Source of the DNA: a phage
Strand: one strand, 5' to 3'
Assembly (NCBI GenBank): GCA_018027755.1
Contig: GCA_018027755.1_4098.1
DNA length: 64,000 nucleotides
Part shown: positions 1-57,412 of the stretch, piece after piece
Position numbering within the stretch: the stretch's first letter is position 1
Layout: each line of letters opens with the position of its first letter
Translations under genes and position numbers: made by a program
The notes under the pieces: generated by a model
The model's database searches: none
Told to the model about the DNA's origin: nothing
The model's input: the letters and a program-made list of their open reading frames with translations, nothing else

Positions 1-405
1 AGTTACCCAAATATTCAAATCAAACGTAAAAGTCCAAGGTACTGGGTTATGTCTTACAATTTTGTATTGTGTGTCAAGATCTTTTGTGTACTCATTAATA
101 GCAGGGGACTTGTTAGACCCCATTACTATAGTTTCGTTGGCATTAGAACGAATATTTTTACGATCCAACTTTAGTTGATTAACACTTATGGTCATTATAG
201 GTGCTGATGGGAGAACATTTTCACTATTCCCATTTATAATTGCTGCTGCCATTCTTGAAATATCGGCATAGCGACATGGAACCTTTTTGTATTTTGGGTT
301 TCCATTAGCATCAATACCATTTTGTACTTGAAATTCACCAAAAACTCTGATAAGATGTTTCAGTACTCTGCGAAATTGACCGTCATAATAATAATCTATT
401 TTCAT
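1..405 (-). CDS. hypothetical protein, partial (N-terminal ~135 aa; C-terminus lies beyond window start)
   Basis: ATG at 403-405 (minus) overlaps the stop of the upstream 501-aa gene (ATGA); frame stays open to position 1 on manual translation; absent from ORF track because truncated. Confidence 0.45.
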   Translation of the reverse strand, partial: MKIDYYYDGQFRRVLKHLIRVFGEFQVQNGIDANGNPKYKKVPCRYADISRMAAAIINGNSENVLPSAPIMTISVNQLKLDRKNIRSNANETIVMGSNKSPAINEYTKDLDTQYKIVRHNPVPWTFTFDLNIWVT

Positions 406-1907
406 TCTGTGTCCTTATGTATGCGATAAACAGTATTAGGTTTAACTGCGTCATGTAATGGAACTTTGTTATCACTATTTACAAACTGTGTAAGTGCTAA
501 GTCTGCACCTTCCCACGGTTTTCTTCCACCATAATCAAAAATAACCCATGAATTCTTAGTTGCATTGAATTCCCATAACGTAACTGGAGTATAATCGGTG
601 CGATAGAAATAGTCACCATCTACTGCATCAGTTGGGAACATATTTCCTTCAGGGACTGTACCTCGTGCTGGTGGAATTTTAGGACGATAATCTTGTTGCG
701 AATCAATATTACCATATACACAATTGGACGTGAATGGTTCATTGACATAAGTTACCTTTGGTTCCCCCCACTTGTCATCATTATACTGATAAATGTGTGG
801 TTCTTTATAAAAAATACAAAAATCTTCCACATCTTCTGGTGGAACATCACTGGTAGTATATTCTACATCACAATTTAACCATTTTTTAGCACTTTTATCA
901 TATTGATACAACGTATAACCTGTCACATCTGCGTCATTTTCTTTAAAGAAGAAGTCACCATCCATTGGTTTTCTGGGAAAGATGGTTCCACGCTTGACTT
1001 CCACAGAAATCCATGTATCATTAACAAACTCTTTGAGTACTGGGTATGTTTTTTTCAAAAAATACATTCCATCGGCAGGTTCTTCTGGAAAATCATAACC
1101 GTTAAGCATATATTTTGATAAATCTACTGTATCAGGTCGATCATCATACAAATGTTCATTTGTATAATGAATATAGGGTACTTCATCATCAGCTTGCATG
1201 ATGATACGGTTCATGATATCCATTTCATTGCCATAGTTACTGTTTTCCGACGAACCATCATCGGTATTTCCATTACCATTATTAGGGTCATCTGGATTAT
1301 CAGGATAATTATTGTTACCGAGTAAATCGGAGTACTCAGGTGAGTCGGTTAGCGGTTTAACTCTAAGTTTATAAATGTGATGTTGCCACGTAACCGAGTA
1401 TCCCTCAGATGTACGAAATGCATCTTGGACGACATAGAAGCGGTTTAGACCTGTATCTTTACCCAATACATCAAAATCACGTAAATTTGGTAGTTCTATC
1501 ACATCCCCTGGCATGATTTTTCTACCTAAACGCTGCATCATTGTATTATAATGGATTGTGATGTCCATAGTGTTGAAATTAAAGAACAATCCTGGGATTT
1601 TCAAGTCTGGAGTTGCTTCTTGAACTTGATAGACACAACTAAGTGTGATAGCTTCAAGGTTGTAGTTTCTGTTTGGTGTGTCACCAAAAATTAAATCGCC
1701 AATACTTGACACAACTGATCCTGAAGATGTATAATCACCTCCATAGGATAAGTCAGTGTTGTCAGCAACTTGTTTTGGACCGACATATGCATAAAGCCAC
1801 ATGTCAACTCCACCAATGTTGTATTGTTCAGCAATGGCAGAATCAATGAACTTGTAATCATTGGTTCTCCCTTTTTTCCACATTCTATATGTCATGTTTG
1901 TCTCCAA
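402..1907 (-). CDS. hypothetical virion/baseplate-associated protein with four aromatic GD[YF]F[FY] repeats
   Basis: 501-aa ORF, translationally coupled to downstream gene; internal ~30-40 aa repeats (GMYFLKK..W, GDFFFKEND..KKW, FCIFYKEPH..DKW, GDYFYRTDY..NSW). Confidence 0.55.
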   Translation of the reverse strand: METNMTYRMWKKGRTNDYKFIDSAIAEQYNIGGVDMWLYAYVGPKQVADNTDLSYGGDYTSSGSVVSSIGDLIFGDTPNRNYNLEAITLSCVYQVQEATPDLKIPGLFFNFNTMDITIHYNTMMQRLGRKIMPGDVIELPNLRDFDVLGKDTGLNRFYVVQDAFRTSEGYSVTWQHHIYKLRVKPLTDSPEYSDLLGNNNYPDNPDDPNNGNGNTDDGSSENSNYGNEMDIMNRIIMQADDEVPYIHYTNEHLYDDRPDTVDLSKYMLNGYDFPEEPADGMYFLKKTYPVLKEFVNDTWISVEVKRGTIFPRKPMDGDFFFKENDADVTGYTLYQYDKSAKKWLNCDVEYTTSDVPPEDVEDFCIFYKEPHIYQYNDDKWGEPKVTYVNEPFTSNCVYGNIDSQQDYRPKIPPARGTVPEGNMFPTDAVDGDYFYRTDYTPVTLWEFNATKNSWVIFDYGGRKPWEGADLALTQFVNSDNKVPLHDAVKPNTVYRIHKDTE

Positions 1908-1934: not shown

Positions 1935-1965
1935 TTGTAGACAAACCGTAAGAATGTGATATAAT
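1935..1965 (+). promoter_or_regulatory. sigma70-like promoter with extended -10 (TGaTATAAT) upstream of ClpA-like gene
   Basis: TATAAT at 1960-1965 preceded by TG at 1957-1958; weak -35 (ttgtag/tagaca); same tgtgatataatg motif recurs at 57326 and 62579. Confidence 0.35.
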
Positions 1966-2005
1966 GTTTATTAATTAGAGTGACGTGAATCACATAGGAG
2001 AATAC

Positions 2006-4294
2006 ATGAATCTTACTCAATTGTTCAAAAAAAGCGACGAACTGGCAACATCTCTAGGTCATACATTCTTGACTATTGACCACGTAAGTGCCACAGTACT
2101 GACTATTGATAGCATCAAGAACGTATTTGAAGATATGAACATTGATGCAGACAAACTGCACAACCGCCTGATGAACTATCTTAAAAATACAACAGTTCCA
2201 CATGCACCAAAAAGTGTTAAAGATGAAGACGCGAATCGCACTTCACTTCTAGTGAATCGCGTTGTACATGAGCTTTCTAAAAAATCAGTTATTGAACAAC
2301 TAAAAAGTGATGATTTTTCGATTGATGCATATTTTGTTCTATTCGAATGTCTGTCTTTCCCTAACACAGCACTAGAAGCTGCGTTGAAAGAAGAAGGTGT
2401 TAGCTGTACTGAAGCTGCACGTGCATTGCAAAAACACGTTGAGTCACTTGATAAGGGTATCAACTTACAAAGTATTAATGACGAACCGATTGGAGATAAA
2501 AAAGTGGCCCAACAGCAGCAATCATCTAAACAAAAAGGTTTGGAAGACTATACAACGAATCTAACTGCTCTTGCAAAAGAAGGCAAACTAGATCCTATGA
2601 TTGGTCGCCAGAAAGAATTGTCTGCATTGATTGAGACTCTTGCTCGCAAAACCAAAAAGAATGCTATTCTTACTGGTGAAGCTGGTGTAGGTAAAACACA
2701 AATCATCGACGGTCTTGCACAAGCTATTGCTGACGGCAACGTACCTGAACACCTGAAAGACGTTGAAATTCTTTCACTAAATGTTGGTGCATTGACTGCT
2801 GGTACTAAGTATCGTGGTGAGTTTGAAGAACGCATCGACAATTTGCTAAAAGAACTAAAGAAACGTGAAAATACTATTGTTTTCATTGATGAAATTCATA
2901 TTATGGTTGGGGCTGGTTCCGCTAGTAATGGTTCTATGGACATGAGCAATATGCTTAAGCCAGCACTTTCACGTGGTGAGATTCGTGTAATTGGTGCAAC
3001 AACATATGATGAATATCGTAAAAATATCGAGAAAGATAGTGCATTAACTCGTCGTTTTATGAAAATTGATGTAGTTGAGCCGTCAATTGATGAAACTCGT
3101 GCAATTGTTAATGGTTTGAAACCAACTTATGAAAAATTCCATAATGTTGAGTTCACAACTGATGCAATGGATGCTGTAATTTCTCTCAGTGATAAATTCC
3201 TGAAGAATAAGCACTTCCCAGATAAAGCAATTGATCTAATGGACGCTGCCGCTGCAAAAGTTCGTTCACGTGACAACAATAGTAAGCTTATTACTGCCAA
3301 TTTGATTCAAGAAGTTGTTGCTGGTATTGCCAATTTGGATATCAACGTGGTTGCATGTACTGAAAGTGATCGTATGCGTAATCTACCAGATGCACTACGC
3401 TCACGTGTATACGGTCAAGAGGAAGCTATTCAAAAATTAGTTGATAACGTGATGGTAGCTCGTGCAGGACTGCGTGACAAATCTAGTGTTCAGGGTGCAT
3501 TTATGTTTGTTGGACCATCTGGTACTGGTAAAACAGAAATTACCAAAGCATTAGCAGATGCAACTGGTGCGGAACTGATTCGCTTTGATATGTCAGAATT
3601 TTCTCAAGAACATACTGTTTCTAAACTAATTGGTTCACCTCCAGGTTATGTTGGTCATGATTCTGGTAACGGTTTACTGTTGGATAAAATTGAGCAGTTC
3701 CCTAATGCAGTACTGTTACTTGATGAAATTGAAAAAGCAGATCGTAAAGTACTACTAACCTTCCTACAGGTTTTGGATGAAGGTCGCCTGACTGGTTCAC
3801 AAGGTAAAACTGTATATTTTAATAACGTAACTGTTATTATGACTACAAACCTTGGTGCGGCAGATTCAACGAAGCGTAGCATTGGTATGAGCGGTAGTGA
3901 TACTGCACAAGACAAGGCAATTAAAGCATTCTTGCCACCAGAGTTTATTAACCGTATTGATAGTATCGTTACGTTTAAAGACCTAAGCAGTGAAGCTATT
4001 GACAGCATCATTGATAAGTTCATGGGCAGTTTGAATGAACAAGTCAAAGACCGCAATGTTAAAGTTACATTGACAAAAGCTGCACGTGAATGGCTTGCGA
4101 AAAATGGGGTAAAAGTTGGCATGGGTGCACGTCCAATGAAACGTACCATTGAACAAAACATTCGTGTACCACTAGCTAAAGAAATGTTGTGTGGTTCACT
4201 TGTGAATGGTGGTAACATTACATTTGATGTTATTGATGGTAAAATCGGTATTAAACCGAAACGTTCCAAAGCTGTAGATAAAGCACTGGCATAA
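2006..4294 (+). CDS. ClpA-like AAA+ ATPase/unfoldase (double Clp-N domain, two AAA+ modules)
   Basis: ORF track 1985..4294; likely start ATG 2006 with AGGAG RBS; Walker A GEAGVGKT (D1) and GPSGTGKT (D2), Walker B FIDEIH / [10 protein letters not shown]-terminal Clp-N repeats, IGM loop in D2 resembling the ClpP-docking IGL/IGF loop; no ClpB-type middle domain. Confidence 0.85.
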
Positions 4295-4296
4295 AA

Positions 4297-4330
4297 AAGA
4301 AAAGGAGAGCAATATGCTCTCCTTTTTTAT
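4297..4330. terminator. bidirectional intrinsic terminator between convergent genes
   Basis: 10-bp stem aaggagagca/tgctctcctt (4302-4311/4315-4324), flanked by A-run upstream and T-run downstream. Confidence 0.6.
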
Positions 4331-7300
4331 TACTTAACTAATAATATATTTTTAATATCATTACCACTAACTTGTAGACTATCAGTGTATACTGAAAGAT
4401 CTATAGTGTAACTATTTTGTGTGTAACGTTTTAACATATCATAATTACCTAAATTAATTCCATTGAAAGAATATGTAGTATTAAGTTTAAAATCATGTTC
4501 TGCACTATACATTACACCACGGAGTAAATTATTTGCATTTCTAACTTCAACTTTTTCATATCCAATCGATATAATATCATTCATGTTCGCGGCTGAACCG
4601 GATAAAACATTATTTCTAATACTATAAGGACTTATTGATTTAGGTTGAGAAACATAGGTTGTATTTTCTTCACTAATGGTTGTGATGTTAGTAACAGTAC
4701 CACCAACAACACCGATGTACATACCGTCAACCATTGGATATCCATAAACCCATATACCTTCATTATTTCTAAACGGTTGAATAACACTTGAGTCATATTC
4801 AATAACGTTGATTTCTAAACTATCAGTCATTTTAGTTCTTGCTAATTCACTAAGAACTCCCGCACCAGTAATTGGTAGGTTATAACCGTTGTCGATAGTA
4901 ATTCCATCAACATCAAATATTTCGTTAGAGATTATCCAAACGTCAACGTCATCTGGTGTTATTCCGTCATTGTACTTACCACCATTTAAAGTAGTATCGT
5001 AGAAAACATCATAATTAATTACATCAATTGTGTAATTTCTATTTTGTTCGTACAATTTGATACCATTCTTCACAAATTCTGGGTCAGCAAATGTTCTAAC
5101 ACGAACAATGTTCAATGCAAGAGGCTGTACTGGCTCATTTTGTTGTGCAAGAGTGATATTATCATAACGGAGAACTGTACCAGTACTCTCATCAATCAAT
5201 TCAATCGTTTCTTTACCTGTATTTCTTACAGTGAATAGGATCGGAGTTGTATTGTTTTTGATGTTAGATACACGCAAGATTGTTTCCCATGTGTGATTTT
5301 GATATCTCACAAAATCTTCACCATCAGGAGTGAAAATCATCACCTTATCACCATCAGATAGGTCATTGTCAACTATTTCTGCTTCAGTTAAGCTATTAAT
5401 AGATCTCACACGATAGAAATATTTTTCATCAAACTTCGATGTTGTTTTATTAATATCATTTTCAATCTTAGCATATGAAGGAATACTTACAATTGCTTCT
5501 GTATGTTTATATGGATTGATAATTGCCATACCTTCAGTTTGATATCTGCTGTTATCACGTAATTGTACAAGAGATACATTGTCAAACCCATATCCATCAA
5601 CTGTAAATCTAATTTGACCTACATCACGCCCAGAAGGGTTTATGTCAGATATATCCACAATATAAGGATCAACTTCATCATCTTTAACTTCCCATTTTAT
5701 TGAAGAAGTTTGAGATTCCAATGCTAGGTTATCAAATGCATTCATATCATTGAAGTACTTAGCTTCAGTAATACTATCAAGTATATATTGATAATCAGAA
5801 TACATTGGATTATTTTGATCTAGTGGTAAATCATCAAGATTTATTTCAGCTAGTTCAACCATTTCACCATTTGTGATAAAATAATCTTCCATGAAATCAT
5901 CAATACTTTGTTCATCAGGTATGCTTTGATATACACCGTTAACATTTAAGTAAACATATTTTCGTGGAATCATTGTAATTGCATAGATATCAATTGGGGT
6001 CTTACTAAGAATCTCTTCAGCTTTTTCGTACTTATCAGTAGCGTCTTTGTCGAATAACCCTCTCATACCTGCTAATACGTGAATAGCATCAGTATAGAAA
6101 CGGGTATCACCACCTACTTCATCATAACGATAAACATATACACCATACTCAACTTCAAGTTTAACTTTTACTTCATAGTCTGATGCGTCAGGATTTTTAT
6201 CTTTAATTAATGAAATGTATTTTTGATACAATTCACTGCTTATTTCAAAATATCCATAGTTATAATCATTACTAGAAGAAAAGCCTAATGGAAGTCTAGT
6301 ACTAGGATTGTCATTATAAGTAAGTCCACTAAATCCACATCCAACTTCATCGTGAATTTTCTCATCACTTATATCTTTATAAAGTTTCAAACGGTTTGCC
6401 AATGTGTTATACTGAACATATTGTCTAAGGTCAGTAAACATATCGTTATGCGTTGATTCTTTATAAACACGTTCCAATGTAGCAGTGAATTCATCAGTTG
6501 CTTCTAAATCTTCCGCATGGTCTTTATACCACTGGTTAACGCCATATGCTGTTCCTAGTGTTACATCCAATTCTGGATAGTAGATTTGCATTTGATAAGC
6601 AATAAGAAGATCGAAAGTTTCTTCACTATATTCTGGGAAAGAATATATATAACGTTGTAATTCATAGTTACTAACAGCATCCTTTTCATTGGATTGATAT
6701 TTGTTATTAACACTTACTAATTCATTTATGCTTGCCAAATCTTCATTTGGTTTACACTGAATATTATCATAATGCATAATAATATCAATTTCTTGGAATC
6801 TTCTATTTGGTGTAACGAAATCACTTGGTAGTGAACCTACCTGTTCCCATTTTTGGGTAATTTCATTAAATTGAGCGTACTCATAATCCCAAATATCTTT
6901 TTCAGTTTTGATCCAAGAACCATCAACGAAAATATATCCATTAGGATCTAAATCATTACATAGACCTTTTATTAAATCATCATCAGATGTCTTTTGCTCT
7001 ATTTGTGAACGAATTTTAGTTCTATAAGGTTTAACTTCTTCAAAATATTCAACAATTTGATTAATCAAATTATCGTTTGAATAGTTTTGAACTAATGATT
7101 GTTCCAAACCAACAATATAGATATATGATGTTTTAAATACCCAATCCACAACACTTTGTTCAACATGTACATATTTGACCATATCAAAAACAATTTCGCT
7201 TTGATGTAAATCGAAAGAATTTTTGAGTAAAGCTAGTGCTTTACGAACGTTGATTTCACGATTGCTTAGTGAACCATTATCATTATGAACACTATAATCT

Positions 7301-10300
7301 GCGTAAAGCATATCATTGAGTTCAACTGTACTGTTTTCACGACCAATCGCTTTCCAATAAATTGAATCGCGTGATTGTGATTTAATATACAATGTCCAAA
7401 TGTTTTCACTATCGGTAACTCTGATAATATCGCCAACTTGGTAGTTTTTAGTATTAGCATCTTCTAAGCTTGACTCTTGAGTATAAGTCGTGTTACTATC
7501 ATACCCAACATCATACCAATCAGCATATGACCAGTACTGAGTCATGTCCAATGAAGTTCCTAGTGATTCAACATAATCAGATTGTTTAATCATTTTATGT
7601 TGTCCCTCACCTTTGTTCTCTAACGTTATAGTAACAACACTACCCGCGTTTGCTGGACTATTCATTAACTGAATATATCCATTTTCGTCGAAGTGAATAA
7701 AATAAACAGCACTAGAAGTTAATGGATTTGGTAGATATCCACTAGTACTTAAAATAACAGCGTCATTTTCTTTAAATTTATCACTTTCAACTGCAATAAC
7801 TAATTCATTATTGTAAGACAATACACGGAAAGAAACTTCATTCGGATTAACTTCAGTGGTTTTAACATTAAACACATCTTCCATAACAACACTATTAGTG
7901 GTTATGTTTTGTGACCTATAATAATTATTAGCACTTTCTACAAAGTTTCTACGAGCTTCTATAACATTTTGGAACCAAGTTTTGTTTGATCCTAAACCGT
8001 TATCAACATCTGGATATAATAAATTAATCACAGAACCTGATTCAGTTGTTTCTTGACCAATTAGTGAGTTCCACATTGAATCCCAAATTAGTGGGTTAAA
8101 GTTATAGCTGTCACCTTCTTTACATAGTTGATACTGGTCATGTTTAACAACTTCAGTACTATCCATGTAATAAGAAACAGTTAAAATACTGGTATCATCA
8201 TTCACTTTAAATTGCATATTACTAAGAATAAACGAGTTTTCATTGATTGGAGCGAACCAAGGAATGTTTAGCTGTGTTGGATCTTTAATAATACGAGCAA
8301 TGTCAGTACATGATTTTGTTCTGGTATGTAGTGGTGGTACATAAATTGTATCACGTACCCAGAAATAGTATTTTGTCACATAACTATCAGTTGAACTATC
8401 ATATTCCAAAAATGTACTATAATTATCTTCAAGTGCAGTTCCACTTGGTAGATACATAGTATTATTTTTGTTTTTCTTAGCAACATCTTTACAGTATTTG
8501 TCCCAGTTATATGGCTCAACTGGTGAACAAACCCACTCTAACACATCAATTGTACTATGTGGTAATAAACGACCCCAGTTGTAACGTTTGTATTCATTGG
8601 TTGCATCAATGTCAACATTACCGTCTGCGTCATAAATTGCACGTGTATAATCCAAATAAAATGCAGTACTTGTATTCCACCATACTTGACCAACTTTATC
8701 AGCACCCCAAGCCTGAATTAATTCACCATTGCTATTATATTGTGCTGGGTCTATTGGTGACGTATAAGTTACGTTTTGCATTGCTGCACCAGGAATAACC
8801 CCATTGATAGGGTCATACACATTTAGATATAATGCAGTAATGTTAGTACGTTCATCATATGTAGTTGGACGGTCAAAAAAAGTACTTTGTGGTGCTTTGT
8901 AACTATACTTTTTGTCAATATATGCTTGACGCTCTTCTGCACTGGCAAAACGTGATACATAACGATACAAACGTGGACGTGTATCTGGATCAGTAAATTC
9001 AATATCAATAGATGTGTCAAATGGAACTACCATAACTTTAGGATCAGAACCAGCAGTATAATATTGACTTTCTACTGTTAAAGTATCTGGCATAAAGTTA
9101 GTTTCATCAACAAAATAATAATAATCACCATCTTCAAGTGGTACATTATCAGTTAAAGTTACTTTACAAAATTGTTCAGCATACACATCGGTATTTTCAA
9201 TAGGTGTTATAGAAACCATTTGTACATTAGTATCAACCAATTCAAAAATGTTCCACAAACCATTACCGTCTTTAAACATCCACACAGATTCAGGATTTTC
9301 ACCTTTACCATTAGTATAAGTTATGCGGTCATTATATGCAGTACTGAAATCTTTTGTTGTGTACGATACTTCATCCAATGTTACTGGACCAATATCTGGA
9401 AGTTGGATATTTTCACTTCTTCCACTACGCATTGGGAATGAGAACTTACCATTTGGACGTGTAATCCAACGAGGATCTTTACCCTGCTCACCGAAGTATA
9501 CAATATGATTACCATTACCATTTGAAGTTGCATTTACATCAAAAGAAACCATTTGAGGTTGTTGTTTAAATTGGTCATTAATCAATTTAAATTGAAGATT
9601 TTTCTTACCATCAATATTACCATATGTACCAATTTTAAATGCCCATTCTTGTAATGCTTTATATTCATCTGTGTCATATGATTTAGAAACACGAAGTACA
9701 CGTTCTAAAACTTGGTTAGTACCTTTATCATGAATGAATCCTTTATAGAAATCAACACGACTAACATCACTACTAATCATACGCTGTAGATAATCACGAG
9801 ATTGATAACCAATCAAATGGTTTGACAACTCTTGTAATTGTACATCACTTACTGGAGTTTCACTATCATAATAATGTTGGAAATCCGACACTAATTTTTC
9901 AAATGATGGTAGTGTTCCAGCTTCCAAGATAATAAATCCAGGAGCTTGTAGACGACCAGTCCATGAACCAGTAATGTAGCCATACATTTTAATTAATTCT
10001 TGAATAGAACCATAAGTTGGCTGATAGATATAATCACCAAAAATAGTCTTATCATCAAAAATAACAGCATGTTCATATGAACACAAACTTAAACGAATTA
10101 ATGCTATACGTTTATTGGATTCTAAAGTTCTAACAGTAAAGATATTACCAATACGAGAAGTTTCAATTTCATATTGACGTATACCTTGGTTGTTATCATC
10201 AAGTAATGACCACACACCACCGTTATTTTGTGTAATAGATTGAACTGAACCAAAGTCTGCACCAAATTTAGCATTTGCTGCACTTGGTGTACAAGAAATA

Positions 10301-13300
10301 AATTCACCCGTTACCAGAGAATTCTGACTCCAGATCACAAAATCTTTAGCAATAGTGTTCCAATCTTGTTGAGCACCACTATCATTTACATCTTCAAAAA
10401 TCCAGCCATGTTCTTTAAGATATTCACCATAACCACAAATAAAAGTATAAACTTCTTGGTAACTATTAAAAACTTTACCATATTCAATGGAAGCTTCAGA
10501 TTTCCATTCGTTATAATGAACAACATTGCGGTTTTCTAATTTAAGAGTTACTTTTCTACCATTTTTTACGGGAAGTTTATATTTAAATTTAGCACCAACT
10601 AGATCATATCCATCAATCTGATATGCACTACCATTCCAAGTAATTTTGATCGCACTCATTTGCTCATCACGGATATTATTAGAACGAACAAGACCAATGG
10701 TTTGGTTTTCTTGTGAAATAAGACCGAAAGATTTAGCATTGAATGTTAGCTGATCTGCTTTAGTAAAACCACCAATTTTATGACCAACATTTATATAAGA
10801 AGAACGAACTACATCCCCATATTTGGTTGTAATGTTTTTATTTTGATACATCAAATAATCACTAACAAACATTTGATAACCAATTGTTCTTGTGTTATTT
10901 TCACCATGAACTACAGTGTTTTTATCAAAATTAATACGCTTACGTGTATCACCATAAAGGAATTGTGAACCATCAGTGAATACTTCTTTTAAATTGTCAT
11001 TTCGGGTATCCCAAAAATAGTTAGCAAATTGTGCTGGTTTAGCTTTATACAAAAGCATCATTTGGTCATATGCAAACAATGTAGTGTTCATGTATGTAAA
11101 TTCCATGTCACCCATATCACCATATGTCCAAGGTTCTGCTCTATGATTTAAAGATCCAGACACTAAACCTAAAATTTCAGGTGCAATATATTCAACCACA
11201 CAAATATCAATACCAGAAGATGTTTTATTTCCAGTTTTTGTAATTTTGAATGGCTGTACACCAAATCTTTTATATTTGTCATATTGACCACGACGATCAC
11301 CAAATAAAATAGTTCCAGTACTGCTATCTCCGATAGTGCCGTCGATATCCCATAGACCACTAGGAACTAAATCTCCTTGTTCATTCATAACAAGTGCTTC
11401 ATATACATATACCACATCACTATCACGCTCACCAACTTGAACAGCAGTTGGTTCATATTCTTGGTTCCACCAAGTTGGACGCTGTGAAAAGCCAAACATT
11501 TCCCACGGATGTGTTGCAGGGCGATATGTACCATATTGGTCAGTATAAATTGCACGCCATGAACCACGAGCAGGAATTTCAGTACTTTGACCATTAACTA
11601 CATAATAAGTGCCAGTATAGTTCCAAGTTCTCCAATTGTTAGGATCATAATCATGTGTACTATTACTGATACCATTAGTTGCGGTGAAGTTAATGTATCC
11701 ACGTAGTAATAATGTTTGTTTCTCTTCAGCACTATATTCAGTTTTAGTGAAATATGGTGTAGGGAAAAGGTCATCACTATTCAATACTGGTACGTAATCA
11801 ACATCTTTGAATTTATTATCAATACTATTAAAAATTCTATTTTCTAATTCATATACAACATCATCCATTTTATCAACACCATTGATAACACGGTATGCTT
11901 TGGAAATAATACCAGTATGACTGATGTTATAACAGCTTGGTTTACTACCAGCAGTGAGGAATGTCGCTTTTTCTGGTACATATGCTTGAAGAATACCTAA
12001 GAACTGTGGTGTTGGTGGTATAAATGCACGAATGAATCCAGAAGTACTTCCAACATTATCATAATAGAATGGGAATGAACTATCACGTCCCATATTAATA
12101 GTAGTTAAAATTGCATCAACAATGTTTGCAGCACTATTTTGTAAAAAGTCTGATGGATTTTCATCATACATACGAAGCATTTGTGTATTAAATTTATTAA
12201 TGAATCTAAAATATTCAGATTGCATAAACATAGTTGCTTCAAACAAATCAATATCTTCATTTGCAGTATGTGCCATCAATGGAAGCATAGATGCTTCATT
12301 TTGGATAATTTTAGTACCTACGCCATTATTAACCAATCCTTTAGCCAAACGTTCTTCATAGTCATTGAAATCATCAGAAGAACCACGTGTAATGTTCTTT
12401 TGAATAATATCCTGAAAATGTAAAGTGTAGTCACCTTGGTTAATGTATATAATATTAGAATTATATGGGTTATTTTGTAGGTTGATTGGAACTTCATATG
12501 CACCTAATTCTTTATTAGGAGTTACAGTACTGCTATAAGTTCTGATTTGAATAACAGAATCTTCATCCAAATCTACAGTACTATCTAGAGTGATGCTTTG
12601 TACTTGACCTTTTGAAACATTTTTGGTATATTTGGACACATCAACACCATCAACCACAACTTCAATAATATCAGAATCATTATCTAAAACTTTTTGTGCC
12701 AATTCGAATGTATGGTCATATTTTACAATCTGAACACCATCACCAGTAATTGGATGCCAATCTAGATAAGTTTCACGGTCAGCTTTATAGTACTGATATG
12801 TTCTATCAACTTCAATAACATATGCATACATACCATCAACTGGTTCTTTAAAAACTTCCATATCATAAACAGTACTGAATACACGATACATATCAGTACG
12901 TTGGACTTGTGGAGTTTGTTTTACAAATTGTTTAGAGTACTCTTCTGAACGAACCCAATCGGTTTGAAGATTCATTTCATTATTTTCATCAATAATGTTA
13001 TAATAGTATAAACCATCAATTTCAACTTCTTTCCCAAGATGGTCATAGGTATAACGTTGGGATTGTAAAAAGTTTTCATAAATGTAATAATTATAATCAC
13101 CAAGTTCAATGTTATATCCATATACACTATCAGTTGCATAGTTGTAATTTATTTTAAAACCAAACAACTCTGAACCTTTAAAGTTACTTGATGGATATGT
13201 AGTACTGTTGTCAAGTTTGATACCATTACGATCATAAAGTTGGAATTTAGGGAATACGTTAACACTAGTTTTTGATTGTGCACGAACCCACAAAGATCCA

Positions 13301-14331
13301 TTCCAGTACATAGAACTATTACCATACTCATTACCTTTAGTGATTAGAACAACATCACCATCTTGTGGTTCACCACTTGGGCGTGATTCGGTTTCTTCTT
13401 CTGGATCTAGTGCTAAACCATAAACACGAGTACCATCTTGCATTTTTTTCACATATACATTATAAATTCTATTGTTTTCACCATTGTTACCAATACTGGT
13501 GAATAGAATACGCATTCCATCTTGCGGAATAATACCATCAATACGTATACCACTATTAATATCTTTTTGAACGATATCTTCAGGTTTAATAATATCAGAG
13601 AACAGATCAACAGTTCCACGGAATTTTGTACCGTAGTTAATTAGCTCAATATTTTTATTATATTCAATAATTGGTGCACGTGCACGAATAAAACGTGAAT
13701 CTTGCATTAATTCTTCAGTTAATATTGAGCCATCTTCTAATGTTTCACCTAAAGTATACCAAAAGTTTTGTAGTGACCATGTATTACCATTAAGTGCTCC
13801 ACGTTCCATTACAATGTAATCAGGTGAAGTAATATTATAAGAGTTTTTAGTATCCCAAAGATATGAGCTAAAATTGTTCATTTTATTTGGGTTAATAGCT
13901 GGAGTCCATGCATAAAACTTACCGTTGAACAAACGGCTTTCATTATCGGTTAGTGCTCCATAATGATTCATGTATCCAACTAGATCATCATAAAATTGAA
14001 TTGAACGAATTGTCGAATCATCATTTTTTGAGACGTAAGCAGTGGACAACTGATAAAGTTGACGTGCTACAGTACTTTCATGTAAGAAGATATTACCAGC
14101 AGCGGCAGGAGAACCCATATCACCAATATAGCCGTCAACTAATTCGTTTTCAGCCGGATTAAACCATTGTTGAATAACATCATCACTGACTTTTTGAATA
14201 TCTTCTAAGCCTTGCATCCACTCAGGCAATCTTTTAATAAAAAGCTTCTTCTGTACTGCTTCAGCCATCTGTGTAGGTTGAAACTTAAAATTATTAGTCA
14301 TTTTTGGACTCCATATAATTCGTTCATTCAT
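4330..14331 (-). CDS. giant structural protein (3333 aa), probable baseplate/tail-fiber component
   Basis: single uninterrupted 10 kb ORF immediately downstream of gp6-like gene in the baseplate operon; no recognizable catalytic motifs; position analogous to T4 gp7-gp12 region. Confidence 0.6.
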   Translation of the reverse strand: MNERIIWSPKMTNNFKFQPTQMAEAVQKKLFIKRLPEWMQGLEDIQKVSDDVIQQWFNPAENELVDGYIGDMGSPAAAGNIFLHESTVARQLYQLSTAYVSKNDDSTIRSIQFYDDLVGYMNHYGALTDNESRLFNGKFYAWTPAINPNKMNNFSSYLWDTKNSYNITSPDYIVMERGALNGNTWSLQNFWYTLGETLEDGSILTEELMQDSRFIRARAPIIEYNKNIELINYGTKFRGTVDLFSDIIKPEDIVQKDINSGIRIDGIIPQDGMRILFTSIGNNGENNRIYNVYVKKMQDGTRVYGLALDPEEETESRPSGEPQDGDVVLITKGNEYGNSSMYWNGSLWVRAQSKTSVNVFPKFQLYDRNGIKLDNSTTYPSSNFKGSELFGFKINYNYATDSVYGYNIELGDYNYYIYENFLQSQRYTYDHLGKEVEIDGLYYYNIIDENNEMNLQTDWVRSEEYSKQFVKQTPQVQRTDMYRVFSTVYDMEVFKEPVDGMYAYVIEVDRTYQYYKADRETYLDWHPITGDGVQIVKYDHTFELAQKVLDNDSDIIEVVVDGVDVSKYTKNVSKGQVQSITLDSTVDLDEDSVIQIRTYSSTVTPNKELGAYEVPINLQNNPYNSNIIYINQGDYTLHFQDIIQKNITRGSSDDFNDYEERLAKGLVNNGVGTKIIQNEASMLPLMAHTANEDIDLFEATMFMQSEYFRFINKFNTQMLRMYDENPSDFLQNSAANIVDAILTTINMGRDSSFPFYYDNVGSTSGFIRAFIPPTPQFLGILQAYVPEKATFLTAGSKPSCYNISHTGIISKAYRVINGVDKMDDVVYELENRIFNSIDNKFKDVDYVPVLNSDDLFPTPYFTKTEYSAEEKQTLLLRGYINFTATNGISNSTHDYDPNNWRTWNYTGTYYVVNGQSTEIPARGSWRAIYTDQYGTYRPATHPWEMFGFSQRPTWWNQEYEPTAVQVGERDSDVVYVYEALVMNEQGDLVPSGLWDIDGTIGDSSTGTILFGDRRGQYDKYKRFGVQPFKITKTGNKTSSGIDICVVEYIAPEILGLVSGSLNHRAEPWTYGDMGDMEFTYMNTTLFAYDQMMLLYKAKPAQFANYFWDTRNDNLKEVFTDGSQFLYGDTRKRINFDKNTVVHGENNTRTIGYQMFVSDYLMYQNKNITTKYGDVVRSSYINVGHKIGGFTKADQLTFNAKSFGLISQENQTIGLVRSNNIRDEQMSAIKITWNGSAYQIDGYDLVGAKFKYKLPVKNGRKVTLKLENRNVVHYNEWKSEASIEYGKVFNSYQEVYTFICGYGEYLKEHGWIFEDVNDSGAQQDWNTIAKDFVIWSQNSLVTGEFISCTPSAANAKFGADFGSVQSITQNNGGVWSLLDDNNQGIRQYEIETSRIGNIFTVRTLESNKRIALIRLSLCSYEHAVIFDDKTIFGDYIYQPTYGSIQELIKMYGYITGSWTGRLQAPGFIILEAGTLPSFEKLVSDFQHYYDSETPVSDVQLQELSNHLIGYQSRDYLQRMISSDVSRVDFYKGFIHDKGTNQVLERVLRVSKSYDTDEYKALQEWAFKIGTYGNIDGKKNLQFKLINDQFKQQPQMVSFDVNATSNGNGNHIVYFGEQGKDPRWITRPNGKFSFPMRSGRSENIQLPDIGPVTLDEVSYTTKDFSTAYNDRITYTNGKGENPESVWMFKDGNGLWNIFELVDTNVQMVSITPIENTDVYAEQFCKVTLTDNVPLEDGDYYYFVDETNFMPDTLTVESQYYTAGSDPKVMVVPFDTSIDIEFTDPDTRPRLYRYVSRFASAEERQAYIDKKYSYKAPQSTFFDRPTTYDERTNITALYLNVYDPINGVIPGAAMQNVTYTSPIDPAQYNSNGELIQAWGADKVGQVWWNTSTAFYLDYTRAIYDADGNVDIDATNEYKRYNWGRLLPHSTIDVLEWVCSPVEPYNWDKYCKDVAKKNKNNTMYLPSGTALEDNYSTFLEYDSSTDSYVTKYYFWVRDTIYVPPLHTRTKSCTDIARIIKDPTQLNIPWFAPINENSFILSNMQFKVNDDTSILTVSYYMDSTEVVKHDQYQLCKEGDSYNFNPLIWDSMWNSLIGQETTESGSVINLLYPDVDNGLGSNKTWFQNVIEARRNFVESANNYYRSQNITTNSVVMEDVFNVKTTEVNPNEVSFRVLSYNNELVIAVESDKFKENDAVILSTSGYLPNPLTSSAVYFIHFDENGYIQLMNSPANAGSVVTITLENKGEGQHKMIKQSDYVESLGTSLDMTQYWSYADWYDVGYDSNTTYTQESSLEDANTKNYQVGDIIRVTDSENIWTLYIKSQSRDSIYWKAIGRENSTVELNDMLYADYSVHNDNGSLSNREINVRKALALLKNSFDLHQSEIVFDMVKYVHVEQSVVDWVFKTSYIYIVGLEQSLVQNYSNDNLINQIVEYFEEVKPYRTKIRSQIEQKTSDDDLIKGLCNDLDPNGYIFVDGSWIKTEKDIWDYEYAQFNEITQKWEQVGSLPSDFVTPNRRFQEIDIIMHYDNIQCKPNEDLASINELVSVNNKYQSNEKDAVSNYELQRYIYSFPEYSEETFDLLIAYQMQIYYPELDVTLGTAYGVNQWYKDHAEDLEATDEFTATLERVYKESTHNDMFTDLRQYVQYNTLANRLKLYKDISDEKIHDEVGCGFSGLTYNDNPSTRLPLGFSSSNDYNYGYFEISSELYQKYISLIKDKNPDASDYEVKVKLEVEYGVYVYRYDEVGGDTRFYTDAIHVLAGMRGLFDKDATDKYEKAEEILSKTPIDIYAITMIPRKYVYLNVNGVYQSIPDEQSIDDFMEDYFITNGEMVELAEINLDDLPLDQNNPMYSDYQYILDSITEAKYFNDMNAFDNLALESQTSSIKWEVKDDEVDPYIVDISDINPSGRDVGQIRFTVDGYGFDNVSLVQLRDNSRYQTEGMAIINPYKHTEAIVSIPSYAKIENDINKTTSKFDEKYFYRVRSINSLTEAEIVDNDLSDGDKVMIFTPDGEDFVRYQNHTWETILRVSNIKNNTTPILFTVRNTGKETIELIDESTGTVLRYDNITLAQQNEPVQPLALNIVRVRTFADPEFVKNGIKLYEQNRNYTIDVINYDVFYDTTLNGGKYNDGITPDDVDVWIISNEIFDVDGITIDNGYNLPITGAGVLSELARTKMTDSLEINVIEYDSSVIQPFRNNEGIWVYGYPMVDGMYIGVVGGTVTNITTISEENTTYVSQPKSISPYSIRNNVLSGSAANMNDIISIGYEKVEVRNANNLLRGVMYSAEHDFKLNTTYSFNGINLGNYDMLKRYTQNSYTIDLSVYTDSLQVSGNDIKNILLVK

Positions 14332-17842: not shown

Positions 17843-17907
17843 AATTTATTCCTTTAAATCAGTAAAGTACTAGATCAGTACTGGGAATTATATATAGAAA
17901 TATTTAT

Positions 17908-17940
17908 TCAAAAAGAAAAGCACTCCGAAGAGTGCTTTTA
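17908..17940 (-). terminator. intrinsic terminator/attenuator hairpin
   Basis: aagcactc-cgaa-gagtgctt hairpin (17918-17937) with A-run upstream on + strand (T-run on minus). Confidence 0.45.
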
Positions 17941-17943
17941 TAA

Positions 17944-18354: not shown

Positions 18355-18843
18355 TTATACGGATTCAACGATACGTGCCATCTTTTCCGCTCGTGAAGTG
18401 GTTTGTTTATACCATGTACTATCACGCAATTCTTTACCAGCAGTTTTGTAATCAGCTTTACCTAATGCGGTCATTGCTTTTTTAAATTTCAAAACTTTGG
18501 TTTTTCCCATTTGGAATACCATTAACCATAATACACGTTGTACCTGTACTGGTGCGGTCATACCGAATTGTTCATAAATTGATTTTGCATCATTGTACGC
18601 AGTTTGAGCATCTTTGAGAAGAAGTTGGTCAGCTTGAGCTTCGGTCAAACCATTCTTGAAATTTTCACCAGGAAGAACTAGATGACCATAACCAATAGTA
18701 TCAAGACCTAAACTGTCTTTATATACCCAAAACTTATCATTTTTAAAATAACCAAGTTTTTTCTGATAAGCAATAGTTCCTTCAAATTCTTTAATTTCCT
18801 TAAAAAATTGCTCATCTGTATTTTTAATTTCCCATTTACTCAT
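18355..18843 (-). CDS. T4-type lysozyme (GH24 muramidase), free-standing
   Basis: 162 aa; catalytic E...D-x5-T pattern (EFEGT...DSLGLDTIGYGH) and MVFQMG motif typical of T4 lysozyme family. Confidence 0.85.
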   Translation of the reverse strand: MSKWEIKNTDEQFFKEIKEFEGTIAYQKKLGYFKNDKFWVYKDSLGLDTIGYGHLVLPGENFKNGLTEAQADQLLLKDAQTAYNDAKSIYEQFGMTAPVQVQRVLWLMVFQMGKTKVLKFKKAMTALGKADYKTAGKELRDSTWYKQTTSRAEKMARIVESV

Positions 18844-18879
18844 AAAGATATCCTCGTTTTATTTATAGTGCTAAAATAT

Positions 18880-21543
18880 TTATTGACATGCCTCCAAACG
18901 ACGAGCCATTAACTCCGCACGGCGTGTGGTTTGGCGATACCAAGCAGAATTGCGGATTTGTGCCGCTGCTTGTTTATAATTACCTTTTGCCATTTCTGAT
19001 AACATAGTTTTAAATTTCAATACACCACCTTTACCCATCTGAAATACCATTTGGCATAGTACTTGTTGAGCAAGATAAGGAGTTTTCATGTTATATGAAG
19101 CATAAATTGATTTGGCATCATAAATTGCTTTACTACTATCACGAACTAACATATCATTTGCTTGTTGTTCAGTTATTCCATCAGAGAAGTTTTCACCGCT
19201 AACAATTAAGTGACCGTAACCAATAGTTGGATATCCACGACTATCTAAATAACGCCAGAACTTACCATTACGATAATATCCCTTTGCTTGTTGATATTGT
19301 AATGTACCCTCATATTCTTTTAATTCAGAAATAAACTGAGCATCACCTGGAACAACTTTCCAATCTATGGCTGTTTTATCAACATTACCTATATTATAAG
19401 TTGGTTGCTCAACTGGCGTAGTTGAAACACCACTTCTTTGTGTTCTTCTCCTACGAGGAACATGTCGTGAACCACGTTGTGAATAACCTGTACCAATTGT
19501 TTTAATTTTTGTAGTAACTACTAATTCATCACTATCAACAGAAGGTTGCACTACTGCTTGAGGTGCAGATTGATTGGTTGCTTTTCCTGCAATTAATGTT
19601 TTATTGGCTGCGTCAGAACCAGTACCAGTTTGAGATGCATAAAATAGACCCGGATCAACTGAACCGCTAAAACCAAGCACGTTAGCTGATGTAACACGTA
19701 TTTCAAACTGTATAACACCATTTGCTTTACCAACAACTTGGCCTTTTTGAACAACATCTTTGTTTAATAAATCAGATTGAATATTATAAAATACAGATTT
19801 ATATCCTGACTTATGTTGTATTAACAGTGCACCATTAGTAATTACTATTACACCACCATCGGGTGCAACTATGTCACCTTTACATTGTATTTCCCATCCA
19901 GAACGATCTGACTTCCCACCACTTTGTGTTGGAACACCTTTCCCCCAATAACCATATTGGCGAATAGTACCACTACATGGCATGAACATATGTAAACCTT
20001 CATATGTAATACTATATCCAGTCATCCCAGGGTCAGATGTCATTAAATCTTGAGATTGCACTTGTTCAGTTTCTGATGTATAGTTAACAAACTGAACAGC
20101 TTCAGTGTCTTGTGCTACGGGTAATTCTGGTGATACATCATTTGCTGGTTGTGGTTGTACTGGTGATTCACTAGAACCACTTCCACCACCTTGTCTTGGT
20201 GGTTCAACATAACTACCATGATTTTCAGCGTTAACCCATGCAGCAATATCATGAATGTGTTCATTAAGACCAGCAGATGGTGTTCTAAAGTTTGGTGCAG
20301 TAAATTCAGCAGTACCGCTATTACCACCACTATTAACTGTTAATGTTTGACCACCACCACTAATAATTGCTGATGATGATCCAATTAGGTTTGCAGATGT
20401 TGCGGCAGAAATAGAAGCATTTGAACCAGCCGTAATATCAGTACTGCTACCACTTTGCATACGTAATGATGCAGCAGTAACTAAACGAAGGTCTGCCCCA
20501 GAATTAACAACAACTTGACCACCAACTTTTGCATCAAGAGCACCAATTAGATCTAATTTAGTATTTGCACCAACTCGTGCATTGAAATCTTGTCCGGTTT
20601 CAATATTATATGAACGTCCAGCAGTAATATTAATATCTTGACCAGCACGAATATTAATATTCTTATCACAATGCATGTCAATATCACCTTCACCAGTGAA
20701 TTTTATACGTGCAGTGCCATCACGGTTAATTAAAAGAACATCACCAGTAGCTTCTGATAAAAGAAGTTGTGCACCACTACGTGTTTTTATTACGACACCT
20801 TCATTTTTACGAGAACCAACACGTGTATCGTTTACTGGGTTATTAAATTGTGTATCTTGATATCCATCTGGGTCTTGATCCCACGTTGGTGCTGTTAATT
20901 CCTCTTCAGTATATCCATCATCAATAATAAAACTATTACCACGTGGCGAAGACATACCATATACAGTACTGGTGGTTTGACGAGTACTACTACGATTCGC
21001 CAACCCAGCTTCTTCGTCATATAAAAGGTTTTGCTTTTTAAGACCTGCGATAATTGGAACGTTAGCATATTTGTCTTGCATATCGGTAGTGATAGTGTTA
21101 CGATCATAGTCAGTAACAGGAAGTGGCATATCAGTTCCACCATAATTACTTACTTCAGTTGCCATACCAGGAACCATAGTATTCATACGCTGGTCATATA
21201 CACAACCAATCCAATATGCTTGGAATGTACGGGCTTGTGCAAAAATTACAACAACTGTACACCCTACATCTGGTGGTACTGCCCAAAAACCATATCCTTT
21301 TGGATATTGACCATATGCATCAGCACTTGGAATACCTGGTGTTTTGCCAGCAAAAGGAGACATGTAAGATGCTTCTATCCATGATTCTTTTGAGTTTTTA
21401 TCACTTTGAGAACCTTGTATCCAAACTTTCAGTTTTCCTGATTTAGTTGGATCTCTGTTATCCATAACAGTTGCTAACTGCGGATAAGATGGGTCAAAAC
21501 GACCCAACTGCTGTTGTGCATACTTTTTACTTGTATCTGCCAT
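18880..21543 (-). CDS. baseplate central spike, gp5-like: N-terminal OB-fold, beta-helix repeats, degenerate M23-like segment, C-terminal GH24 lysozyme
   Basis: 887 aa; N-terminus resembles gp5/VgrG OB domain; Gly/Ser/Ala/Asn-rich repeat block; C-terminal 150 aa ~50% identical by eye to the adjacent free lysozyme (LDSRGYPTIGYGH, MVFQMG). Confidence 0.75.
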   Translation of the reverse strand: MADTSKKYAQQQLGRFDPSYPQLATVMDNRDPTKSGKLKVWIQGSQSDKNSKESWIEASYMSPFAGKTPGIPSADAYGQYPKGYGFWAVPPDVGCTVVVIFAQARTFQAYWIGCVYDQRMNTMVPGMATEVSNYGGTDMPLPVTDYDRNTITTDMQDKYANVPIIAGLKKQNLLYDEEAGLANRSSTRQTTSTVYGMSSPRGNSFIIDDGYTEEELTAPTWDQDPDGYQDTQFNNPVNDTRVGSRKNEGVVIKTRSGAQLLLSEATGDVLLINRDGTARIKFTGEGDIDMHCDKNINIRAGQDINITAGRSYNIETGQDFNARVGANTKLDLIGALDAKVGGQVVVNSGADLRLVTAASLRMQSGSSTDITAGSNASISAATSANLIGSSSAIISGGGQTLTVNSGGNSGTAEFTAPNFRTPSAGLNEHIHDIAAWVNAENHGSYVEPPRQGGGSGSSESPVQPQPANDVSPELPVAQDTEAVQFVNYTSETEQVQSQDLMTSDPGMTGYSITYEGLHMFMPCSGTIRQYGYWGKGVPTQSGGKSDRSGWEIQCKGDIVAPDGGVIVITNGALLIQHKSGYKSVFYNIQSDLLNKDVVQKGQVVGKANGVIQFEIRVTSANVLGFSGSVDPGLFYASQTGTGSDAANKTLIAGKATNQSAPQAVVQPSVDSDELVVTTKIKTIGTGYSQRGSRHVPRRRRTQRSGVSTTPVEQPTYNIGNVDKTAIDWKVVPGDAQFISELKEYEGTLQYQQAKGYYRNGKFWRYLDSRGYPTIGYGHLIVSGENFSDGITEQQANDMLVRDSSKAIYDAKSIYASYNMKTPYLAQQVLCQMVFQMGKGGVLKFKTMLSEMAKGNYKQAAAQIRNSAWYRQTTRRAELMARRLEACQ

Positions 21544-36085: not shown

Positions 36086-36157
36086 ACATAAATAACAGTG
36101 TATAAGAATGAGGGTTTATTTTACCCTCATTTATAATGCATATTTCAAGGAGATCAA

Positions 36158-36385
36158 ATGTTAAAGGACATCTTTGAATCTAGCAGTGATTCAATGTACG
36201 ACCCTGAAGATGATCAGAACGTATATAAAATTACTGATTCCAGAAAACCGAAACTAACATTACAAGTATTAAACAACTTAAGAAAGTACCGTGAATTTAA
36301 AGCACATGAAGAACAACGCCGCAAAAATGTGGTTGCAGTTGTTTATGCCGCTGCACCAACAGGTGACGGTTCTGGGTTAATGTAA
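36158..36385 (+). CDS. prohead core protein, gp67-like (by position)
   Basis: 75-aa ORF between portal-like and acidic core protein genes, as T4 gene 67. Confidence 0.4.
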   Translation: MLKDIFESSSDSMYDPEDDQNVYKITDSRKPKLTLQVLNNLRKYREFKAHEEQRRKNVVAVVYAAAPTGDGSGLM

Positions 36386-36474
36386 ATCAAAAATCGCACT
36401 TTTTAAAGCTTTTAAAAAAGGCGATTTTATTCAGTACTAAATAATATCATACTTTATACGAATGTAATATATCT

Positions 36475-37343: not shown

Positions 37344-37967
37344 ATGAGTAGTATGATTCGTGAATGGTCTTCATTCAATGATTCTAAAGTTGTTTTGGAA
37401 CATCGTGATAATGGATTTGGTGGGCGTGACTGCTATCTTCGTGGTATTGCTATTCAAGCCGACCAACGAAATTTGAACGAGAGAATTTACCCTTTATCTG
37501 AAATTACAAGGGCAGTAAATAACATGAACCAGCGTTTAGCTAAAGGTGAAAGCATTCTTGTTGAATGTGACCATCCAGAAACACTAACTATTAACCTAGA
37601 CCGAGTAGCAGCAATGATTACTAAGGTTTGGATGGAAGGTGCTAATGGTATGGCAGAAATCAAACTACTTGATACTGCACATGGTCAAAATATCCGTAAA
37701 ATGCTAGAGGCTGGTGTAAAACTTGGTGTAAGTTCTCGCGGTTCCGGTAACGTTGATTATAATGGAATAGTTTCTGATTTTGAAATTATCACTATTGATA
37801 TTGTTGCTCAACCTAGTGCTCCAGAAGCATACCCAACAGCGGTATTTGAATCTCTGATGAGTAAGTACGGATCACCTTGTAATAGTTCTAAAAAAATCAC
37901 TGAATCTAAAAAAGTAAATAATTTAGATTCTGAAATATACGATTTTTTCAAGAAATTAAAAGGTTAA
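37344..37967 (+). CDS. prohead core protease, gp21-like
   Basis: GVKLGVSSRGSGNV and IDIVAQPSAPEAYP match T4 gp21 GVELGVSSRGYGSV / IDLVMTPSTPEAIP. Confidence 0.8.
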   Translation: MSSMIREWSSFNDSKVVLEHRDNGFGGRDCYLRGIAIQADQRNLNERIYPLSEITRAVNNMNQRLAKGESILVECDHPETLTINLDRVAAMITKVWMEGANGMAEIKLLDTAHGQNIRKMLEAGVKLGVSSRGSGNVDYNGIVSDFEIITIDIVAQPSAPEAYPTAVFESLMSKYGSPCNSSKKITESKKVNNLDSEIYDFFKKLKG

Positions 37968-40502: not shown

Positions 40503-40531
40503 TTGACAGAATATTTTTAATTATATATAAT
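40503..40531 (+). promoter_or_regulatory. consensus sigma70 promoter (TTGACA-17 nt-TATAAT)
   Basis: TTGACA 40503-40508, 17-nt spacer, TATAAT 40526-40531, directly upstream of homing-endonuclease-like ORF. Confidence 0.55.
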
Positions 40532-48480: not shown

Positions 48481-48581
48481 TAAAAAATTGAGACAAGCAT
48501 CATTTTTGAGATATAATGGTGCTTGTAGTAATCTTACATAAAAACATTTTTTGATTAACAAATAAAACGGAGAATTATATA

Positions 48582-49584: not shown

Positions 49585-49585
49585 T

Positions 49586-52114: not shown

Positions 52115-57412
<5,298 letters not shown>

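Follow-up and report, generated by a model that had tools for sequence, protein, structure and literature searches.

The clpA locus of a 121Q-like jumbo phage

The gene under study encodes a ClpA-type AAA+ unfoldase of 762 aa and lies on the plus strand at positions 2006..4294 of the window, by which we mean the whole 64 kb stretch of DNA analysed. It was assigned by its orthology to gp581 of phage 121Q and by the family, PDB and structure matches described below. The open reading frame extends from 1985 to 4294, and its in-frame ATG at 2006, which is also the start annotated for 121Q gp581, yields the 762 aa product with a stop at 4294. A ribosome-binding site, AGGAGA, could be read from the sequence 4 nt 5' of this ATG (1996..2001, plus strand).

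The window is ∼98.5% identical to Asteriusvirus jumbo phages, e.g. 121Q and PBECO4. When the ORF was compared by megablast with 50 697 phage records, 21 of them matched at 95–99% identity, all being Asteriusvirus-type jumbo myoviruses of Escherichia coli and Salmonella (named matches include 121Q, PBECO4, phAPEC6, SP27 and the SD-x_Sxx phages). The source of the window is a 121Q/PBECO4-like jumbo coliphage, and the 64 kb represent about a fifth of a genome of ∼350 kb. The window spans the point at which the 121Q record was arbitrarily opened, and its terminase gene at 54348..55988 is the counterpart of 121Q gp4. The closest known system is formed by 121Q gp581 and its orthologues in PBECO4, phAPEC6 and RaK2 (ORF069), which are assigned to PHROG 4871, a family that matched the ClpA of the window over its full length with 1036 bits. 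The protein is 99.5% identical to 121Q gp581 by tblastn, from which it differs by a few substitutions and in nothing substantial, 99.6% identical to ClpA of Salmonella phage SD-6_S16, and 75.7% identical to the RaK2 orthologue. In 121Q an HNH endonuclease gene is found a few genes from clpA, which the phage of the window lacks.

Both neighbours of clpA lie on the minus strand. Upstream is a divergent virion structural gene (402..1907), and downstream is a convergent gene encoding a 3333 aa virion protein (4330..14331), followed by baseplate genes. Two sigma-70-like promoter sequences precede clpA on the plus strand, in a window that contains only seven sites of such strength over its entire 64 kb. 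The distal one (1706..1735; TTGACA-18-TATAAT, 12 of 12 consensus positions) lies within the 5' region of the divergent structural gene, and the proximal one (1938..1965; TAGACA-16-TATAAT with an extended −10 TG, 11 of 12) is identical in 121Q. RaK2 possesses a site equivalent to the distal promoter ∼300 nt upstream of its ClpA gene and, despite a diverged intergenic sequence, a 12 of 12 site at the position of the proximal one. The 35 nt gap between clpA and the convergent gene is occupied by a palindromic G+C-rich hairpin (4300..4326), preceded by an A-run and followed by a T-run, a predicted terminator common to clpA on the plus strand and its convergent neighbour on the minus strand; a near-identical hairpin is located 3' of the RaK2 ClpA gene. 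Gene order around clpA, as well as the promoter and terminator layout, is the same in the window, in 121Q and in RaK2. No Rfam family and no tRNA was detected in scans of the window.

The sequence-only reading of this DNA had described clpA as monocistronic, which agrees with the predicted promoters of its own and with the hairpin that it would share with the convergent gene. As the promoter pair and the hairpin are kept in RaK2 despite the differing intergenic sequence, clpA appears to be an independent monocistronic unit that host RNA polymerase probably transcribes. Given promoters of the sigma-70 type, transcription would probably be carried out by the unmodified host enzyme early in infection, the term ‘early’ being a reasonable reading of the sigma-70 consensus.

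Architecture of the phage ClpA

The TIGR02639 ClpA model of NCBIfam matched the protein in a single stretch (residues 3–740 on model positions 5–732 of 734) with 755.2 bits, which is below the equivalog cutoff of 993.15 bits, and model NF008263 gave 656 bits against a cutoff of 1350. On sequence grounds, the protein is a divergent ClpA-type member and not an ‘equivalog’ in the NCBI sense. The Pfam domains AAA (D1), AAA_lid_9, AAA_2 (D2) and ClpB_D2-small were detected in addition to the N-terminal domain treated below, and the best relative of solved structure was E. coli ClpA (phmmer against the PDB, E = 6.5e-181). An AlphaFold model built from 46 homologues had a mean pLDDT of 78.9; Foldseek returned ClpA-ClpP complexes and, among its top matches, ClpC-ClpP complexes, with D1-D2 47–48% identical to E. 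coli ClpA. Whereas ClpA is matched in one stretch, the ClpB, ClpV, ClpK, ClpG and ClpC models or chains are split into two stretches on the phage protein, and the need for two stretches with the ClpB, ClpV, ClpK and ClpG models indicates that the middle domain is missing. ClpC and ClpB/Hsp104 resemble the phage ClpA in having two AAA+ rings and Clp_N, but they carry a middle coiled-coil domain, which is lacking in the phage ClpA, and ClpB has no ClpP-docking loop.

The N-domain (aa 1–150; 2006..2455, plus strand) consists of two four-helix Clp_N repeats and is highly diverged. Pfam Clp_N recognized only the first repeat (24.4 bits, cutoff 20.7), and a sequence search with the N-domain alone reached no better than E = 0.012 against ClpA-N structures. 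Comparison of profiles by hhalign, however, matched the phage N-domain to the whole E. coli ClpA N-domain with 99.6% probability (E = 1.3e-23), and its two halves to their respective E. coli counterparts with 98.6% and 97.1% probability; the E. coli N-domain sequence used agrees with the 1KSF alignment. In the AlphaFold model, the first 150 residues form eight helices. When the two halves were compared with each other, the internal repeat was not significant (15.9% probability). By the profile and model data, a double Clp-N domain is thus present but very divergent, at about 20% identity to that of E. coli.

The D1 nucleotide site and pore loop (2675..2899, plus strand) comprise Walker A GEAGVGKT (aa 224–231), the pore-loop segment GTKYRGEFE (aa 266–274) and Walker B IVFIDEIH (aa 291–298), and those of D2 (3512..3739, plus strand) comprise Walker A GPSGTGKT (aa 503–510), GSPPGYVGH (aa 543–551) and Walker B at aa 569–578. 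Both Walker motifs and the pore loops KYRG and GYVG are near-invariant in 120 homologues.

At the position of the ClpP-docking IGL of ClpA, the alignment, the translation and the model loop all place an IGM tripeptide (aa 626–628; 3881..3889, plus strand). The phage segment ‘RSIGMSGSD’ aligns column for column with ‘KSIGLIHQD’ of E. coli ClpA, and in the AlphaFold model IGM lies in a low-confidence loop (residues 624–630) between a D2 strand (608–614) and a helix (634–642). Its third residue, methionine, is not the canonical leucine or phenylalanine, while the hydrophobic-Gly-hydrophobic pattern to which IGM conforms is kept in most of the 120 homologues. Within this phage clade the docking tripeptide is unusually variable, the counts being 17 for IGM, 16 for MGM, 11 for IGV, 10 for LGM and 9 for IGA, followed by LGL and MSM (8 each), VGF (6), and IGG and MNM (5 each). 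Lineages with the non-canonical tripeptides MSM, MNM, IGG and IGA still keep ClpP, and docking may therefore not be uniformly constrained.

The architecture had been largely anticipated by the sequence-only reading: the complete ClpA layout, the double Clp-N domain (albeit a very divergent one), the intact Walker A and B motifs of D1 and D2, the absence of a ClpB middle domain and the placement of IGM at the IGL site in a D2 loop were all confirmed by the searches described above. That observation on clpA is correct and stands well above chance, and 2006..4294 encodes a genuine, intact and full-length ClpA-type unfoldase. With E. coli ClpA, the ATPase of the ClpAP protease (TIGR02639; PDB 1KSF, 6W1Z, 7UIV), the phage protein shares the order N-domain, D1, D2, D2-small, the lack of an M-domain, the Walker and pore motifs and the position of the docking loop. 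It differs by IGM in place of IGL, by the low identity of its N-domain and by its score (755 versus 993 bits), and, unlike its E. coli counterpart, it is virus-encoded, in a genome family that also carries divergent ClpP and ClpS-like genes. Recent capture of clpA from a host was considered and rejected, as identity to E. coli ClpA amounts to 39–48%, no cellular sequence comes nearer and the phage proteins form a clade of their own.

ClpP and ClpS-like proteins of related phages

By tblastn with E. coli and Bacillus subtilis ClpP and E. coli ClpS sequences as queries, no ClpP or ClpS was found in the 64 kb of the window. The same absence had led the sequence-only reading to an orphan ClpA; it is accurate for the window, but only since the latter covers 64 kb of a ∼350 kb genome. 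Clp partners were accordingly sought in the complete genome of 121Q, whose GenBank record labels gp581 as ClpA-like, gp464 and gp473 as ClpP-like, gp48 as ClpS and gp475 as ClpYQ-like.

121Q gp464 (231 aa), encoded ∼84 kb from clpA, gave a full-length match to Pfam CLP_protease (141 bits) and shares 35.6% identity with E. coli ClpP, with S113, H139 and D188 aligned to the Ser/His/Asp catalytic triad. The triad is retained in all nine phage ClpPs aligned, i.e. gp464 and those of eight further lineages. By these matches gp464 is a genuine ClpP of the canonical type, with a predicted intact active site. The PHROG-style name ‘head maturation protease’ probably mislabels gp464, as its score on cellular ClpP models (152–155 bits) is three times that on the ClpP-related head-maturation model (51 bits) and an S77 protease is present. 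The latter, a T4 gp21-like prohead protease encoded inside the window at 37344..37967, adjoins the scaffold and capsid genes; since it already covers head maturation, gp464 would be free to act as a partner of ClpA. The second ‘ClpP-like’ protein, 121Q gp473, remained below the Pfam cutoff with 16.7 bits, has a hydrophobic, signal-like N-terminus and was dropped as a ClpA partner, and the ‘HslV-like’ gp475 was marginal, with no Pfam match and ∼19 bits in NCBIfam. The lining of the docking pocket of phage ClpP differs from that of E. coli (Y60T, F82S, F112L, L114G), and when nine lineages were compared, the ClpA tripeptide and the ClpP pocket residues showed no clear pattern of covariation.

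A ClpS domain with long extensions was found in 121Q gp48 (181 aa; Pfam ClpS 24.7 bits, cutoff 23), which is encoded ∼22 kb past the end of the window. Several canonical N-degron-binding residues are missing from gp48, in that N34, D36, M40 and H66, which bind N-degrons in E. coli ClpS, are not conserved. In phage SD-6_S16, ClpP and the ClpS-like protein are each 100% identical to those of 121Q.

Among the 50 697 phage records searched by tblastn, 71 contained ClpA and 70 contained ClpP at an identity of at least 60%, and the ClpS-like protein was present in 72. These records all belong to Rak2-like phages, whose hosts are Escherichia, Salmonella, Klebsiella, Cronobacter, Erwinia, Serratia, Yersinia, Pectobacterium and Xanthomonas, and identity declines across the lineages in broadly the same order for the three proteins. 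The totals, compared as such, suggest that the clpA, clpP and clpS-like genes are co-inherited. The three genes are dispersed, ClpP being 84 kb away and ClpS elsewhere in 121Q, and their co-occurrence could simply reflect a large shared Rak2-like core genome. PA5oct and Atu_ph07, two more distant jumbo phages, also possess both ClpA and ClpP.

A ClpA without a phage partner is thus not what the genome family contains: ClpP and a ClpS-domain protein are encoded by the relatives, a phage ClpP being found in every close relative examined. The orphan reading is an artefact created by where the window ends, and the puzzle of the missing ClpP vanishes because the rest of the genome, as seen in these relatives, encodes it.

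The gene itself was already known as an annotated, conserved member of the jumbo-phage Clp set. ClpA was described as highly conserved in most Rak2-like phages by Attai et al. (2018; PMC6102473), who also reported ClpA, ClpX, ClpB, ClpP and ClpS in Atu_ph07, and ClpP, ClpS, ClpA and ClpX were noted in jumbo phages by Iyer et al. (2021; PMC7824862). Viral unfoldases accompany a viral ClpP in Atu_ph07, in PA5oct (ClpA, ClpP) and in phage G, in which ClpX takes the place of ClpA to form ClpXP (PMC6102473; PMC12484599; PMC7824862). The ClpA proteins of PA5oct and Atu_ph07 are only 38–41% identical to that of the window. The literature that we found consists of genome descriptions and one comparative review, with no functional study of a jumbo-phage ClpA, ClpP or ClpS. 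One ClpP peptide was reported in mass spectrometry of the CBB virion (PMC5259590), and ClpP was also detected by virion mass spectrometry in PA5oct, a hint that ClpP may serve some other purpose.

Possible roles of the phage ClpA

We consider it probable, at roughly 60%, that clpA specifies the unfolding ATPase of a ClpAP(S) protease that the phage itself encodes. ClpA hexamers would unfold their substrates and thread them by means of the D1 and D2 pore loops, and the flexible IGM loops would dock the hexamers onto tetradecamers of the phage ClpP, the gp464 orthologue encoded outside the window. The phage ClpS-domain protein, the orthologue of gp48, would probably bind the divergent N-domain and shift substrate choice; the substrates might be proteins of the host, or phage proteins that are misfolded or made in excess. 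The physical cooperation of ClpA, ClpP and the ClpS-like protein, the timing of expression and the substrates are what we infer. The reading is favoured by the intact anatomy and motifs of ClpA, by the homology of IGM to IGL, by the intact triad of gp464, by the S77 prohead protease, by the ClpS domain of gp48, by the parallel record counts and by the promoter and terminator positions conserved in RaK2. It is weakened by the dispersal of the three genes, the variable tripeptide, the altered ClpP pocket, the N-degron-binding residues missing from the ClpS-like protein, the detection of ClpP in virions and the ClpA score below the equivalog cutoff.

The sequence-only reading had instead suggested that the phage may redirect host ClpP proteolysis or use the unfoldase for remodelling. 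In the first case, the phage ClpA would dock on E. coli ClpP, in place of or besides the phage ClpP, and compete with host ClpA and ClpX. The homology of its docking loop to the E. coli IGL loop, with the hydrophobic-Gly-hydrophobic pattern kept, and the 47–48% identity of D1-D2 to E. coli ClpA speak for such docking, as do the sigma-70-type promoters, which point to transcription at a time when host ClpP is plentiful. Its premise that no phage ClpP exists is, however, false at the level of the genome family, so that nothing now requires hijacking, and dependence on host ClpP would make it needless to keep a ClpP with an intact active site across the Rak2-like lineages. We therefore regard redirection of host ClpP as quite unlikely. 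That clpA was acquired from a bacterium and is now in decay or without function is very improbable indeed: the score below the NCBIfam ClpA equivalog cutoff and the very divergent N-domain might be taken in this sense, but the ATPase and pore motifs are near-invariant in the 120 homologues down to ∼53% identity, the regulatory signals are conserved in RaK2, and the phage proteins form a distinct, old clade, with ∼845 bits (53–55% identity) at its edge and 652 bits (45%) for the next match.

A protease-independent role, in which ClpA acts as an unfoldase or assembly chaperone that remodels or translocates virion proteins without ClpP, for example the adjacent 3333 aa tail/baseplate protein, also deserves to be weighed, though we judge it rather improbable. 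E. coli ClpA alone is able to remodel RepA, and in 121Q and RaK2 clpA is situated within the tail/baseplate module, flanked by a virion structural gene on one side and the giant virion gene on the other. ClpA adjoins DnaJ and large tail proteins in PA5oct, ClpA and DnaJ have the consecutive gene numbers gp292 and gp293 in Atu_ph07 (PMC6102473), and a translocase or assembly role was suggested by Iyer et al. (PMC7824862). Against this, clpA is on the opposite strand, with sigma-70-type promoters and a terminator of its own, and hence stands outside the late structural operons, and most lineages have kept the docking tripeptide. The protein at the ClpA position is absent from the phAPEC6 virion table, according to an inferred gene numbering, and ClpA of PA5oct bears no mass-spectrometry flag; these absences argue only against packaging of ClpA and not against a chaperone role.

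Returning to the phage-encoded ClpAP(S) protease, if ClpA, ClpP and the ClpS-like protein cooperate, Rak2-like jumbo phages would equip the infected cell with a complete, regulated protease, and its substrates would reveal the host or viral proteins whose removal very large phages need for growth. The remaining interest of the locus lies in the possibility that this protease is private to the phage, with its own adaptor and substrate specificity. In its furthest form, which is possible but doubtful and which we put forward tentatively, Rak2-like phages would carry a ClpA with a fast-evolving tripeptide, a ClpP with a re-lined pocket and an altered ClpS-like adaptor, the whole being insulated from host ClpA, ClpX and ClpP and directed early against host proteins of the phage's choosing; defence or stress proteins may serve as examples of such targets. 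Tripeptides considered in this context are IGM, LGL, IGV, MGM, MSM, MNM and IGG, together with the ClpP pocket changes Y60T and L114G. The ClpS-like adaptor would no longer have a canonical N-degron pocket but would have acquired an N-terminal extension of 70 aa.

Docking tripeptide of the phage ClpA, and ClpS- and ClpP-like genes of 121Q

The ClpP-docking tripeptide, which is encoded at window positions 3881-3889, was unusually variable across the 120 ClpA homologues compared, the phage proteins carrying IGM, MGM, IGV, LGM, IGA, LGL, MSM, VGF, IGG or MNM at this position. The glycine was lost in the SE_PL and Hallingskeid lineages (MNM, MSM), although both retain a ClpP with an intact triad.

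The ClpS-domain protein of phage 121Q, gp48, is encoded about 22 kb past the end of the window (positions 34461-35006 of 121Q locus L002), between an IF3-like gene on one side and a KTSC-domain protein gene, labelled ‘DnaJ-like’ in the 121Q record, on the other. The protein is extended by approximately 70 residues at its N-terminus and has a C-terminal extension as well. At the equivalents of the E. coli ClpS residues N34, D36, M40 and H66, which bind N-degrons, it has D, P, A and N, respectively, and because of these substitutions gp48 may not read classical N-degrons.

The 121Q ClpP gene lies a few kb from two further protease-like genes, namely gp473 (18420-19028 of 121Q locus L006), whose product is another protein of the ClpP type, though with very weak similarity, and starts with a hydrophobic segment resembling a signal sequence, and gp475 (L006, 19356-19952), encoding a marginal HslV-like protein.

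Virion proteins and folding genes

In the PA5oct record, the ClpP homologue gp212 (2709-3380 of locus L010) carries a flag for detection in virions by mass spectrometry, and the ClpA of this phage is without such a flag. Virion mass spectrometry likewise detected the ClpP homologue CBB_104 in phage CBB, with one peptide (PMC5259590). These detections could reflect either packaging or co-purification of ClpP.

The gene convergent with clpA in the window (4330-14331, minus strand) encodes a virion protein of 3333 amino acids, whose counterpart in phAPEC6 is a 381.9-kDa protein identified in the virions of that phage. A GroES-like co-chaperonin gene is present at 49523-49885 (Pfam Cpn10, 60.9 bits), and DnaJ-like, Hsp70-like and ‘chaperonin’ genes are annotated elsewhere in 121Q; the phage is thus well provided with genes for the folding and turnover of proteins.

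Predicted promoters and a mobile element

A sigma-70-like sequence agreeing with the consensus at 11 or all 12 positions was predicted at seven places in the 64-kb window, all on the plus strand (1706-1735, 1938-1965, 8804-8833, 40503-40531, 48488-48517, 48555-48583 and 63657-63685). The perfect site at 1706 falls within the coding region of a structural gene on the opposite strand, and that at 8804 is antisense within the giant virion gene.

The 121Q record places a 765 bp HNH endonuclease gene, gp584 (35844-36608 of locus L001), between a gp6-like baseplate wedge gene and a gp25-like gene and describes it as ‘associated with group I intron’, whereas the matching site in the window (17843-17943) comprises only about 100 nt and this mobile element is thus absent from the window's phage.
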